NCBI GenBank assembly: GCA_049599895.1
Contig: JBMYPC010000051.1
Coordinates: 1-19,779 of the forward strand
Length of the DNA stretch: 19,779 nucleotides
Source: Bacteriovoracaceae bacterium
GTDB lineage: Bacteria > Bdellovibrionota > Bacteriovoracia > Bacteriovoracales > Bacteriovoracaceae
Direction of reading: 5' to 3'
Part shown: positions 6,442-16,158 of the stretch, one piece after another
Numbering within the stretch: the stretch's first letter is position 1
Layout of the letters: each line of letters opens with the position of its first letter
Made by a program: the position numbers and the translations under genes
Notes under the pieces: generated by a model
Told to the model about the DNA's origin: nothing
Databases searched by the model: none
Seen by the model: the letters and a program-made list of their open reading frames with translations, nothing else

Positions 6442-7350
6442 GTAACTGCTCAATATTGTGTGTTTTTTATAATGATGTTACGAGCTTGCCTAGATATGGT
6501 ATATCTTCTCGCCTGCTGATTCGATCTTCTAAATAATCCCAAAAACTAAGATTTAATTTACGGCATGTGGACATTAAAGAGAGCATCAAGTCCCAAGCTC
6601 TAACTCCATCTATCAATGACTACATCCAACTCCTTAATAAGCACCTCGTGTGCTAGTGGAAGCTTCTTGTACTTCCTAATCTCATGTACCCAGCACAATT
6701 GATGATTCCTTACTATATCCACAAAATTTGTTCCATCATCTGAGACTAAAAACCTAATCTTTTTATCTCTTCTCAAAGCACTAATCGCCGCCGCTGTCCT
6801 AACAATATCAAGCTCATCTTTTCTAATCTTAAACGTATAAACCTCAGAGAGCTTCGCCTCAAATGCATCTCGTACAAATTCTTGTCCTTTAAGTGCATAT
6901 AACTGAGCCGTTACTCTTGCTCGCTTAAGTTTGTTCGCCACAAAGCTAATCGCTTCATCGTCTATATAAAACTTTTGCTCTGTTAACAATGCTCCCACTG
7001 CTGACCAACGATTCTTCTCTAAACCTGTCACATATTCTGTAAAGTAATCATTACAAACACCGTAAGTAAAACCATTAACTCCCTTAATTCTTGCTCCTGT
7101 GTCATCGATAAAGACTCGGCTCTGCATTTTTTATCTTCTCGTCAAGAAGAGTCTCCGCCGTCTCAACTAACTTTTCTTTTAGTTTCCCCTTTTTCCAGCC
7201 CTTTATAAAGCCTCGTGTAAGATTTTTGATCTCATCAAATGCCATAACTTATTTTGACAAAAAATTTATGGATGGCCAAACAATTTAAATGACATAGGGC
7301 CTTAAATGAGAAAAAGGGGATATAAACGTAACTATCTATTGAGCAGTTAC
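6442..7350 (-). mobile_element. Non-autonomous, internally deleted IS66-family element (909 bp)
   Basis: Perfect 14-bp terminal inverted repeats GTAACTGCTCAATA (6442-6455) and TATTGAGCAGTTAC (7337-7350), starting with the IS66-typical GTAA; they enclose TnpC fragments. Confidence 0.88.
6467..7245 (-). pseudogene. tnpC: IS66 transposase remnant in three out-of-frame pieces
   Basis: N-terminal piece from ATG 7245 (MAFDEIKNL...LLDEKIKNAE). Catalytic core at 7127-6600 (IDDTGAR, LVSDD, HQLCWVHEIR). C-terminal piece at about 6607-6467 (GVRAWDLMLSLMSTCRKLNLSFWDYLEDRI...). Confidence 0.85.
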
Positions 7351-7460: not shown

Positions 7461-9707
7461 GTGCAAAAGTATAGAGCTTTTTCTCTTTGTTCTGTTATTT
7501 TTCTCTTGTTTTCATCATCTTTATTTGCAAGTTCATTCAATGGTTCTAGGAAACAGGTCAGTGTTGTCGTAGATAAGTTGGAGAGTGTAAAAAAAGAATC
7601 GAAGCTTCATGTATTTTTGCTTCACGGAATTAAGGGCAACAAAGAAACCTTTGGTGATCTTCCTGCAATTCTTGAAGAGACTTATCAAAATAAGCTTAAA
7701 ACGAGTTACTTAACTTATCCAACAAATCCAAATAAAAAAACAGATGTAGTAGAGAAGAGTTTAAATGCCTCCAATTTTGCTCATGTGGTTTACACAAAGA
7801 TGATTAACTACTTCGTTGAAAATGGTTTTGATTCTTCTTCAAATTATTCATTTGTTTCTCACAGTCAAGGTGGAGTTGTTGCTCTTAAGTTTATTCAGTA
7901 CTGTGTAGAGAAAATGAAGTGTAACTATGAGAAAGGTCTTGAGTATATTAGAGCGGCACAGGAAGAAAGTGTAGAGGTTTATGAGAAAAACCTAGAGCAG
8001 AAAAAGAGTACAAAGTTAGCAGGAAAGCTTAAATTTGTGATGACTCTTGGGGCTCCTTTTTGGGGATCGCCTCTTGCCTCAAGAGTTTCTGATTTTCCAC
8101 TCTTTAAGTCTTTGTTTAAAAAACAGTTTCCTGAAAAGCAGCTAGAGTCTTTAGCATCAGGTTCACTTAATCTGACTCTTAATCGCAAATATCTTCTTGG
8201 AAATCTTTATCAAGATGAGCAGTGGAGCTCACCAATTAAAAGTGATGTGAGATTTTATAACTTAAGTGGTTATGTGAACTTGAAGGAAATTAAACCTCAA
8301 GGAATTATCCAGGCCATTGTAAAAGGCCTTTCCCTTGTCTTTTATAGAAAGACTTCCGAAACAGATATCGCTGTTGAGGTTTCTGATGCGAGAATTGACT
8401 TTCATTACTTCATTGAAAAAACAAACCCCGAAAATCAAGATCAGCTTGATATTTTTCAAGGAACGACTAATTTAAGTCAAAACTATACACCTCTTCAGCT
8501 ATCTCATATTCATATCCCTCTCTTTAAGCAGTCGGGGATTTTCAACCTTGTTGATATTGATTCAAAGAATAAAGATCAGTATTCATCATGGGCCTATATG
8601 AAAAGTATCTTCGATCAAGAGTTTGGAAATGAAGGCAAAGTCTTTAGTGAAGAAGAAATTGCAAAGGTTCGAACGTTTAAAGTTGAAGTTAAGACGGAGC
8701 TTCCCATAGGTTACCACCGAAAACTTCCTATTAAAAAATCGAGCTTTCAGTTAAAAGCAGCTCCTGGTTATGAAGATGAATTCCAATACCTAAGTGCGAC
8801 GAATACAATTTTTAATAAGTTTAGTGGTATGAACACTAAGCATGACGATCAAAAGGTCAAAAACTATCAGACATTTTATCATCAAGGAAAGCTTGTTAAA
8901 GGAAACCATATGCGAGCTTCTGAAATTACTCATAGCTCATCTGTGCCAAAGTATAAAATTGATTACACTTTAGATATTCCAGGATGGGAGAAAAAAGAAT
9001 TTAGGCTCAATGTTTCTCCAACGTTTTCAAGCTATGCTGAGCTTATTATGAAACCTTATCTACCGCTTAAAAAGCGTGAAAAGAACTTTTATCTCAATGA
9101 CTTCCAATCATACCTTGTTAACGTTCTTTACTATGATGGTAGAGATATGATTGTCACAACTATCGAAGATGCCATGGGTGAGAGACCTTATACGAAGCTT
9201 AAGTTTTATAGTTCTTTAAAAGAGTTAAAAGAAGAGCTTTCAAAGACAGAGGAAGATCTTGAGAAGAGGCTTGCAACGACTTGTTTTGAAGGAAAGATGG
9301 GGGCCATTGTCAAAGGAACTCATGAAAACAAAGCTTTTGAGCTTCCTACTTCTCAAAATGATGAAGAGACTTATTCTTTAGAAGAAGGTGAAAAAGTAAC
9401 AGTTTTAGGGCGAGTTTCAACAGGTAATGAAGGTTCACTTCCAGGTGTTCAGATGGAAGCTCCAACAGATCGCTATCTTGTCACTTCATTAAATATTAGA
9501 AAAAATGATCGCATTAACAACCTTGAAAAAGCTGAGCAAGGTAAAGGTCTAAGATGGGTCAATGTTAAAGATGTTGATATTATCAAGTCTGTACGATGTC
9601 AGATGAGAAGCAGCTATCAAAAAACTCATGGGCCTAAGTCCAAGACATTCAAATCTCGAAAACAAACGACAATCAAATCCCAGGAGTTTAAGCAATTCTA
9701 TAAGTAA
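7461..9707 (+). CDS. Secreted alpha/beta hydrolase (lipase/esterase-like) with a long C-terminal extension
   Basis: Signal peptide (…FLLFSSSLFA), VFLLHG oxyanion motif, nucleophile elbow FVSHSQGG, MTLGAPFWGS, candidate Asp (ETDIAV) and His (LSHIH); GTG start with a GAGG SD. Confidence 0.75.
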   Translation: MQKYRAFSLCSVIFLLFSSSLFASSFNGSRKQVSVVVDKLESVKKESKLHVFLLHGIKGNKETFGDLPAILEETYQNKLKTSYLTYPTNPNKKTDVVEKSLNASNFAHVVYTKMINYFVENGFDSSSNYSFVSHSQGGVVALKFIQYCVEKMKCNYEKGLEYIRAAQEESVEVYEKNLEQKKSTKLAGKLKFVMTLGAPFWGSPLASRVSDFPLFKSLFKKQFPEKQLESLASGSLNLTLNRKYLLGNLYQDEQWSSPIKSDVRFYNLSGYVNLKEIKPQGIIQAIVKGLSLVFYRKTSETDIAVEVSDARIDFHYFIEKTNPENQDQLDIFQGTTNLSQNYTPLQLSHIHIPLFKQSGIFNLVDIDSKNKDQYSSWAYMKSIFDQEFGNEGKVFSEEEIAKVRTFKVEVKTELPIGYHRKLPIKKSSFQLKAAPGYEDEFQYLSATNTIFNKFSGMNTKHDDQKVKNYQTFYHQGKLVKGNHMRASEITHSSSVPKYKIDYTLDIPGWEKKEFRLNVSPTFSSYAELIMKPYLPLKKREKNFYLNDFQSYLVNVLYYDGRDMIVTTIEDAMGERPYTKLKFYSSLKELKEELSKTEEDLEKRLATTCFEGKMGAIVKGTHENKAFELPTSQNDEETYSLEEGEKVTVLGRVSTGNEGSLPGVQMEAPTDRYLVTSLNIRKNDRINNLEKAEQGKGLRWVNVKDVDIIKSVRCQMRSSYQKTHGPKSKTFKSRKQTTIKSQEFKQFYK

Positions 9708-9784: not shown

Positions 9785-9807
9785 AAAAAATGCCCTCGGA
9801 AGAGGGC
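9785..9807 (-). terminator. Intrinsic terminator of the candidate sRNA
   Basis: The minus strand reads GCCCTC-TTCC-GAGGGC-A-TTTTTT. Confidence 0.75.
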
Positions 9808-9955
9808 CTCTTACATCGACTTAACTTGAAGGTAGGGTTTTATGGTGAGATTGGTGAGACGATCATTCGAGCGCCGTTAATGAGGTTGGCCAAGGTGGGA
9901 CGTTTACGGACAAGATTTAAAGCGATGCCGAGGCCTTATGCTTGCCAACCAGTTG
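9785..9955 (-). ncRNA. Candidate sigma54-dependent small RNA (~170 nt)
   Basis: Bounded by a consensus sigma54 promoter and an intrinsic terminator; no credible ORF; more GC-rich than neighbouring intergenic DNA; internal stems GGTTGGCAAG/CTT(G)GCCAACC and TCATT/AATGA. Confidence 0.65.
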
Positions 9956-9964
9956 CCTGTATAT

Positions 9965-9982
9965 AAGCAATACATGTGCCAA
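9965..9982 (-). promoter_or_regulatory. Sigma54 (RpoN) -24/-12 promoter
   Basis: The minus strand reads TTGGCAC-ATGTA-TTGCTT, matching TGGCAC-N5-TTGCW exactly. Confidence 0.8.
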
Positions 9983-10007
9983 AGTTTTTGACATGCTTGA
10001 GTCGAAA

Positions 10008-10020
10008 AATCAGATACTTA
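10008..10020. promoter_or_regulatory. IHF binding site between the enhancer-like sites and the sigma54 promoter
   Basis: AATCAGATACTTA fits WATCARNNNNTTR; located at about -53 to -65. Confidence 0.6.
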
Positions 10021-10040
10021 GGAATGGCCGTTTTGATTCC

Positions 10041-10080
10041 GGTTCACTTTGAGACCATCAGAGTGTTCTCAAAAAGGGAC
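10041..10080. promoter_or_regulatory. Putative enhancer (bEBP UAS): tandem imperfect palindromes
   Basis: GGTTCACTTTGAGAC (10041-10055) and TTCTCAAAAAGGGAC (10066-10080) both approximate GTCTCA-N3-TGAGAC; centred at about -93 and -118. Confidence 0.5.
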
Positions 10081-10102: not shown

Positions 10103-10711
10103 TTATTCGATATCGACGTTAATTGTGACGCCTTTGATGCGCTCTTTCTCTTTTGGGATAAATTCGAATTCGATAGGGCTTAGGCCATCGAATTGCTGGT
10201 CATAAGCAATTGTGACGGTGTTTGGGCATAAGTCCTGAAGACTTGTGAGAAAGTAGTTTGGTGGCAGAGTTTCGGCTATAGTATCAGCTTCTTCATCTGA
10301 CTCATCGAGTTCCATCATAGGTCTACTATTTGTATTTTTCACAATAATAGCACCTTTGATTTTTTCTTTTGGGATCTCATTGGTTTGGTTCCAAGAGCCA
10401 ATATGGAAGAAATCAAGGTAGAAGATCGAGTTGTGATATTTTACTTTTCTTGGCAAGAGCAGTGACTGGATAAACCTTCGCGTGCTTTGGTCTTTTGAGC
10501 GCTTGGCAAGCTTGTCAGCCAGAGAACTGTCTTCAATTCTAATAATATAAGCGCCTTTGTTTTTTGTGCTGCGGTATAGCATGTACTGGAAAGCGACTGA
10601 GAAAAGGGTAAAAAGCTTTTGTTGGGGTAAGAGAAAGTGACCCACATTCTCGGACTCCTCAACCAGCTTTTTAACGCCCTGATAGAGGTGTTCTTTTGGC
10701 ATGTCACGCAT
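10103..10711 (-). CDS. Hypothetical protein (~202 aa)
   Basis: Long ORF; start re-called at ATG 10711 behind a GGAGA SD; has its own sigma70-like promoter; no family recognised. Confidence 0.7.
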   Translation of the reverse strand: MRDMPKEHLYQGVKKLVEESENVGHFLLPQQKLFTLFSVAFQYMLYRSTKNKGAYIIRIEDSSLADKLAKRSKDQSTRRFIQSLLLPRKVKYHNSIFYLDFFHIGSWNQTNEIPKEKIKGAIIVKNTNSRPMMELDESDEEADTIAETLPPNYFLTSLQDLCPNTVTIAYDQQFDGLSPIEFEFIPKEKERIKGVTINVDIE

Positions 10712-10760
10712 TGTTCGAAAATCTCCAAAACGACAAATAAAATAAATTAACCGAGGCAAA

Positions 10761-10886: not shown

Positions 10887-10925
10887 CCGGAGAGTTAGCA
10901 TTCATTGAAAAAGTTGGAGAAGACC

Positions 10926-15552: not shown

Positions 15553-16158
15553 ATGAAAGTCTGGAGCATCGCTTTATTATTAATCTTAGGTTTTTCAACT
15601 TCTTGTGGAAAAAGTTCAAAAGAGAATGAAGAGACCACAAGTACTTTTTATCACCAATTCATTACCTCTCATAACGGGGTAGAGAATGGTAAAAAAGTTG
15701 TTTGGAGTGGATATGTTCCTAACCTTTATTCGGGACAATGTCAGGTTTATGGAAACCAATATACGAACTCAAGTGTGAGATTTGAACTTGAAATTGATAG
15801 TGAAGGATCATTTTTCTTTGTCACCAATGATCAAAGTGAATTTCAAGGCGGAAATGAAAATGCCAGATACGGAATCCACGGGGACTGGGAAAGAAGTAAC
15901 GGTGATTTAATTTTAAAAGGATTTGGTCGGTCGTCAACAGACAATGTTGTAAGAAGCAACGGGAGCGCATTGAGGTACTCAAACTATGATTCTTATGCTT
16001 TAGATCTTCCAAGTCGAGATGGGTGTATGATTGTAAGAACTGATCAAAATATTGAAGCGACGACCTTAGGAAACAATAACTATTATAATTCTTATTATAA
16101 CAACTACAACATTTCAATGTTTGGAAGTTGTTCACTTGAGTTTTGTATCGAAGAATAA
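15553..16158 (+). CDS. Hypothetical lipoprotein
   Basis: AAGGAG SD; signal MKVWSIALLLILGFSTS-C with a lipobox-like Cys18; Asn/Tyr-rich patch near the C-terminus. Confidence 0.8.
   Translation: MKVWSIALLLILGFSTSCGKSSKENEETTSTFYHQFITSHNGVENGKKVVWSGYVPNLYSGQCQVYGNQYTNSSVRFELEIDSEGSFFFVTNDQSEFQGGNENARYGIHGDWERSNGDLILKGFGRSSTDNVVRSNGSALRYSNYDSYALDLPSRDGCMIVRTDQNIEATTLGNNNYYNSYYNNYNISMFGSCSLEFCIEE

Follow-up and report, generated by a model that had tools for sequence, protein, structure and literature searches.

A predicted, enhancer-controlled sigma54 non-coding RNA with covarying long-range helices and C-rich motifs in Bacteriovoracaceae

The window analysed here, a stretch of 19,779 nucleotides, comes from contig C51 of a 3.27-Mb Bacteriovoracaceae genome that is assembled in 266 contigs and 97% complete. 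A predicted non-coding RNA is encoded on the minus strand, with a 748-aa gene that ends at 9707 convergent to it and a 218-aa gene on its other side. The latter adjoins a divergent gene starting at 10905, which we take from its sequence to encode EF-G, and no activator gene adjoins the RNA locus. The features of the locus are as follows.

9785..9807, minus strand: predicted local intrinsic terminator (hairpin 9807-9792 and T6 tail)
9785..9955, minus strand: predicted non-coding RNA body of about 165-170 nt (match to covariance model R2 at 9795-9956, 78.4 bits)
9805..9818, minus strand: 3' arm of helix P2, CGAUGU ... GAGGCC
9830..9858, minus strand: C/A-rich linker with two CUCACCA and C-rich motif 2, CCUACCU (9836-9830)
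9858..9875, minus strand: hairpin P3, with a GAAU tetraloop at 9868-9865
9883..9890, minus strand: 3' strand of helix P1, GCCAACCU, seed-like, with predicted masking by the 5' tail
9893..9899, minus strand: C-rich motif 1, CCCACCU, mostly unpaired in the prediction (0.68)
9923..9935, minus strand: 5' arm of P2, GGCCUC core (9935-9930) and GCAUCG extension, pairing with 9818-9805
9944..9950, minus strand: 5' strand of P1 (5' tail), GGUUGGC, pairing with 9890-9884
about 9955, minus strand: predicted transcription start, placed by promoter spacing
9966..9982, minus strand: sigma54 -24/-12 promoter, TTGGCAC-N5-TTGCT, exact consensus
10008..10020, no strand assigned: IHF-like site at about -65
10041..10055, minus strand: predicted upstream activator site, GGKYCA-N3-TGRMCC, centred at about -93 (12.4 bits)
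10066..10080, minus strand: weak distal palindrome (3.8 bits)
10103..10759, minus strand: 218-aa gene, conserved in Bacteriovoracaceae and the usual neighbour of the RNA there, at most a candidate partner

The 218-aa neighbour gene was present in 108 of 121 family genomes, genera without the RNA included. Its product had no Pfam match. A structural model (pLDDT 80) gave weak matches to RecA-like/helicase-domain folds at E values of at least 0.003 and low-scoring atlas leads, and the fold search was empty at E<=0.001. Elsewhere in the window, an ORF on the minus strand (6600-7127) resembles a transposase fragment by eye and lies where the GC skew is reversed; it had no match in Pfam. An 85-base palindromic repeat was also noticed on about 15 contigs of the genome, among them C78 (1337), C16 (12170), C7, C100, C24, C115, C35, C53 and C90. 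It had no Rfam match and is probably a small mobile or REP-like element.

Plain blastn gave one weak relative in 60 genomes, so synteny, patterns and covariance models were needed to find the family. Related promoter-RNA units were seen in relatives among the sequences beside the 218-aa gene. A tight 5' pattern matched in only 2 of 237 genomes, and a pattern combining the promoter with P1 matched in 50 of the 237 family genomes, the reversed control giving a single match; two of these matches were false (L066 and L078) and one was doubtful (L076), and all three were dropped before alignment. In L076 (G115:C77), which model R2 does not recognise, the sigma54 unit includes a long 5' stem and a C-rich run; this is possibly another RNA. 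Alignment A1 used 41 of 49 sequences, seven near-duplicates being left out. The covariance model R1, which omits the promoter, matched in 62 of 150 family genomes at E<=0.05, and a sigma54 box was present in all 23 checked copies newly found by it, which constitutes an independent check on the family, as the model does not contain the promoter. A second promoter-free model, R2, matched in 73 of the 150 genomes at E<=0.1 and in 68 at E<=0.001. Fourteen weak R2 matches were read individually: the seven with E<=0.001 have the sigma54 box, and the seven others (E>=0.0017) have none and were rejected. One further model match, L145, proved to be an ordinary terminator.

By these models, the predicted RNA gene is present in about half of the sampled Bacteriovoracaceae genomes. 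Most carry one copy, and G029, G030 and G077 carry two; the long form was absent from the searched genomes of several large genera. R2 had no match in 121 genomes of the phylum outside the family, and in one other family only 2 of 131 genomes gave weak partial matches, none convincing. A scan of all species genomes returned 118 pattern matches, 32 of which were confirmed by R1. Names on the confirmed records were of Bdellovibrionota type in 28 cases, and the four that were other or vague were read as depositor labels; the named homologous records were mostly Halobacteriovorax, Bacteriovorax, Bacteriovoracaceae or Bdellovibrionales.

The promoter reported in the preliminary description was found as an exact match on the minus strand, its extent being 9982-9966 and not 9965. 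Seven strict sigma54 boxes occur in the 3.27-Mb genome, against 0.86 expected genome-wide and 0.005 per window from base composition, and in 55 members P1 lies 16-23 nt from the -12 element. Two upstream palindromes had also been claimed. The proximal one (10055-10041) has two mismatches to the consensus first given for it and reaches 12.4 bits with a matrix built from the family, sites of at least 12 bits having a genome-wide frequency of 3.8e-5; for the distal one (10080-10066), no site was found at up to two mismatches, and the claim was not confirmed. Allowing up to two mismatches, GGKYCA-N3-TGRMCC is contained in 32 of the 61 member promoters, compared with 2.5 in shuffles; the motif came from this same promoter set, and its sites are centred at -90 to -140. 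The proposed IHF site has one mismatch to the IHF consensus and sits at -65, the commonest position in the family; IHF-like sites were present in 28 of 61 member promoters (shuffle mean 7, maximum 15), phased at -55/-65/-76.

RpoN and CsrA are encoded in the genome, and PF00158, the enhancer-binding ATPase domain, had 12 matches there, nine of them with E<1e-20. Hfq was not found in this 97%-complete genome. A few other sigma54 promoters of the genome share the activator site, and these lie mostly upstream of proteins with apparent signal peptides. The same holds for most of the intergenic sigma54 boxes in this genome, and within the window a further sigma54-like box (about 15459, plus strand) lies 94 bases upstream of a 201-aa probable lipoprotein gene at 15553. 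The box, the activator site and the IHF site together fit the class of sigma54/enhancer-controlled non-coding RNAs, and dependence on RpoN is predicted from them.

The predicted RNA has a median length of about 163 nt in the family. As the folding energy of the single sequence was no better than that of shuffles (z +0.28), the case for structure rests on covariation, which was assessed in alignments A1 (41 sequences) and A2 (55 sequences) and was found for three helices, P1, P2 and P3. In A2, pairing was seen in 87.9% of cells and change on both sides in 21 of 24 pairs, a result reached by none of 500 shuffles, controls that overstate significance given that kin share sequence; slid registers brought pairing down to 19-50%. 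P1 had 95.7% of its cells paired in A2, with change on both sides in 6 of 7 pairs. Four P1 positions in A1 were fixed by the search pattern, and P1 also changes on both sides in copies found without it (L128, L133 and L136). P2, whose core joins 9935-9930 to 9810-9805, changed on both sides in 10 of 12 pairs; it brings the 5' region together with the 3' end and as a rule continues as an irregular rod. All five pairs of P3 changed on both sides, and this hairpin was also recovered independently by RNAalifold.

Through P1, the 5' tail pairs inside the large loop that P2 closes; P1 and P2 therefore cross as a pseudoknot. Two nested conformers of the window copy, at -34.8 and -33.7 kcal/mol, lie within about 1 kcal/mol of each other, and P1 and P2 may form at once or in alternation. 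The internal structure put forward in the preliminary description stood in part: the P1 arms GGTTGGCAAG (9950-9941) and CTTGGCCAACC (9894-9884) are present, whereas the proposed TCATT/AATGA hairpin lies 3 kcal/mol above the minimum-energy fold, the conserved hairpin being the GAAU-loop stem at 9875-9858, and both the long-range stem P2 and the pseudoknot had been missed. The terminator-like hairpin with its T6 tail was found as described. Its 5' arm overlaps the last three pairs of P2 in the window copy, and a U-rich run follows within 18 nt of the end of P2 in 46 of 58 members. The helices and the loop are also strongly conserved in sequence (GGUUGG, GGCCUUG and the GAAU loop), more than a mere scaffold would need, an excess that suits recognition by a protein.

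Neither the window nor seven homologous loci gave an Rfam match over the RNA at E<=1, in line with the novelty that had been claimed. The negative result includes alpha-r14, RsaE, LhrC, Pxr and Qrr, for some of which Rfam may hold no model. In the literature we found no description of this RNA, nor of any small RNA for Bacteriovoracaceae; subscription papers and the supplements of RNA-motif surveys could list it. HDV-like ribozymes have the strand order 7-bp P1, variable joint, P2, P1 partner, hairpin, P2 partner, and their outer strand order is the same as in this RNA. Unlike those ribozymes, it shows by eye in A1 and A2 no conserved pairing equivalent to their P3 or P1.1 and no catalytic C within a nested double pseudoknot, has UC or CC and not GG after P1, and has no Rfam match; this assignment was rejected.

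With 36.5% C and 5.5% G, the linkers of the family bear AUCCYACCUU-like motifs on either side of P3. Per RNA, UCCYAYC occurs 1.02 times against 0.08 expected, and CCHACC 1.61 times against 0.29. Redundant, conserved C-rich motifs in predicted unpaired regions are thus present, as in sRNAs with C-rich seeds. The C positions of the motif change mostly to U, which is only suggestive of pairing with G, because the site picker favoured C-to-U changes.

Four genomes that lack the long RNA were then searched by reading their sigma54 boxes, about 100 of 162 sites being covered. Short paralogues were found in G083, and none was seen in G102, G035 or G006. Such short forms (L327, L331, L471, L472, L476, L478, L480, L481 and L491), often two or three per genome, differ in their closing stem, share the GAAU hairpin, carry CCYACCU once or twice, and are without the GGUUGG tail and the pseudoknot. 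Most are recognised by R2, weakly, and one genome (G187) holds both long and short forms. In 35 of 46 long forms, 20-22 nt separate the start of the P1 3' strand from GAAU, and an exact, free CCYACCU stands 19-20 nt before GAAU in 6 of 9 short forms. As the short forms show a free motif where P1 pairs in the long ones, the 5' tail may mask one C-rich site through P1.

The locus is very probably a real non-coding RNA gene, its expression being predicted; among listed sequencing runs, no carrier of the RNA appeared. Conservation, covariation and promoter architecture, together with the lack of an Rfam match and of a conserved ORF, give good support to the central proposal of the preliminary description, that of an undescribed, enhancer-controlled sigma54 non-coding RNA. 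A link to life-cycle stage, which that description also suggested, is no more than conceivable. As to function, the reading with most support, at about even odds, is that the RNA acts by pairing to mRNA, through redundant C-rich seeds and probably independently of Hfq, so that ribosome loading would be blocked. The retention of the motif in short paralogues, despite their different closing stem, was counted for this base-pairing mechanism, and independence from Hfq is made probable by the failure to find Hfq in the genome. The core AGGAGG is not what the motif complements, and at start sites the enrichment of its 6-mer complements is only modest (AGGTAG 19 vs 3.5, AGGTGG 14 vs 6.6, GGTGGG 4 vs 4.2). 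Seed pairing to 2935 predicted start regions of one genome was no better than to coding controls, the 1st percentiles being equal. The best-looking candidate, rplR, was rejected when its site proved absent from all 30 other genomes; other candidates in this target work were two genes presumed, from their N-termini, to be rplD and rpsK.

The main rival to mRNA pairing is that the RNA is a decoy or scaffold, the rod displaying two or three CCYACCU and the GAAU loop and titrating a protein that binds C-rich, G-poor single strands, as a KH-type protein or Rho would. The redundancy of the short motifs in unstructured linkers of the composition given above, the strong sequence conservation of helices and loop, and the empty target search speak for such a role, which we regard as possible and distinctly less probable than an even chance. 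Two particular forms of it were rejected. A CsrA sponge of the CsrB/RsmZ type is not indicated, although CsrA is encoded, since GGA occurs 1.46 times per RNA against 2.04 expected and not at all in the window copy. Nor is a CrcZ-type Hfq/Crc sponge, with AAnAAnAA at 0.16 against 0.25 expected and Hfq not found. The RNA might instead bind RNA polymerase like 6S or Ms1, with its closing stem, open bubble and apical hairpin imitating an open promoter; the rod-bubble-hairpin outline is similar and CCCACCU also occurs in the Rfam 6S consensus, but this RNA has a far bigger bubble and a shorter apical stem, and its motif occupies other positions. With no match to 6S (RF00013) at E<=1 and the genome's own 6S RNA, over the cut-off, located on C53, this is very unlikely. 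The reading as a leader, a small-peptide mRNA or a remnant without function was already largely refuted and is highly improbable: the 8-codon ORF noted earlier is indeed present at 9866-9840, and shuffles fold as well as the single sequence does, but ORFs vary in place and length across 61 members, some having none, the next gene is convergent, and the helices covary behind a conserved promoter.

Two further readings involve RNA partners. A second sigma54 RNA, about 95 nt long and marked by a 5' GU repeat, an AAGGAU hairpin loop, UGUCUCUC and a terminator, occurs in 176 of 237 family genomes, this one included (G000:C69, about 8535-8620, minus strand; L460:3035-3124), and has no Rfam match. 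The first RNA could act as its sponge, in an antagonistic pair under different activators, and is unlikely to do so. The promoters of the second RNA have a different upstream site, with the activator site of the first in only 2 of 73, and 9 of 36 cognate pairs, from seven genera, were better than with shuffled RNA (z<-2), some of them with 12-16 contiguous pairs (L283, L284 and L067). Against this, whole-RNA duplexes had a median z of -0.3, and with shuffled seeds as the control the mean z was +0.47 and only 3 of 36 pairs passed, on which ground sponging as a general feature was rejected. The window's own pair did less well than expected by chance (z +0.9 and +1.8), and set among the 2935 leaders it would come 455th. 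Within this genome, the leader that pairs best with the second RNA is an AC-repeat preceding a gene that, judging by its N-terminus, is presumably SMC. Pairing with ribosomal RNA is more improbable still: complements of 8-10 bases to 23S (GAGGUUGGCU and AGGUGGGA) and 16S (AAGGUGGGG) in the rRNAs of the four relatives examined were found after the fact, the P1 strand of G079 follows its intramolecular partner and not the unchanged 23S, and a 16S variant was matched by the RNA in one of two informative genomes. It is unsupported as a general feature.

Among other sigma54 transcripts of relatives, L377, L392, L344, L326 and L391 carry one or several AGGAUG repeats resembling CsrA sites, and L377 may, from its sequence, be a CsrA-binding non-coding RNA. 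Vibrio Qrr and Pseudomonas CrcZ are activator-dependent sigma54 non-coding units that both depend on Hfq; the RNA described here differs in that Hfq was not found in its genome and CrcZ-type motifs are not enriched. CsrA control in Bdellovibrio is described as little known in one report (PMC13443453). Pxr of Myxococcus, a predator without hfq, has a predicted sigma54 promoter and an upstream enhancer region, and it forms three local stem-loops, is restricted to Cystobacterineae and has its activator gene adjacent (PMC5684412), whereas our RNA has long-range crossed helices, no adjacent activator gene and no Rfam match at E<=1. The attack-phase RNAs of Bdellovibrio bacteriovorus, a predator of the same phylum, comprise APsRNA1-7 and merRNA and are phase-regulated and intergenic; APsRNA5 is similar in length to our RNA, and the P1/P2/GAAU/CCYACCU arrangement was seen in none of the eight printed sequences when compared by eye (PMC3627812).

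The closest likeness in mode of action is to sRNAs with redundant C-rich sites. NfeR1 (alpha-r14) of rhizobia is Hfq-independent and pairs at translation starts through redundant, unpaired C-rich motifs, a redundancy shared by our RNA; it lacks a sigma54 promoter and folds into three hairpins, which bear CCUCCUCCC loops (PMC10746234). Our RNA, by contrast, carries CCYACCU in the linkers of one large loop, a pseudoknot and a sigma54-type promoter, and has no Rfam match. RsaE (PMC2790875) and LhrC (PMC4132741) likewise use repeated unpaired C-rich sites, do not need Hfq and sometimes occur in several gene copies. They are Gram-positive RNAs with UCCC motifs and other regulators and have no sequence match with ours, and their abstracts mention neither an end-to-end rod nor a 5'-tail pseudoknot. 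By this analogy, the mode of action would be that of RsaE, LhrC and NfeR1, without membership in any of these families.

In the proposed mechanism, an enhancer-binding ATPase at GGKYCA-N3-TGRMCC, brought to the promoter by an IHF-induced loop, would fire it under one condition. P2 would then join both ends as a stable rod and keep the two G-poor linkers open, and the CCYACCU motifs would pair, without Hfq, with AGGURGG-like sequences in G-rich ribosome-binding regions of mRNAs. P1 would sequester a third site, CCAACCU, such that opening or trimming of the 5' tail would raise activity. A bolder reading, which we offer as speculative and rather doubtful, is that the RNA is a self-gated switch with a tail-locked seed that, in a two-RNA toggle with the G/U-rich second RNA under another activator, sets attack versus growth phase in Bacteriovoracaceae.

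The RNA gene offers a mutable promoter, a predicted activator site, helices backed by covariation and precise motifs. If the proposed mechanism is true, an end-paired rod whose 5' tail masks its own site through a pseudoknot would be an unusual design for a bacterial sRNA. Bacteriovoracaceae are marine and freshwater predators of bacteria, and the RNA bears on the question of how they switch between hunting and growing.
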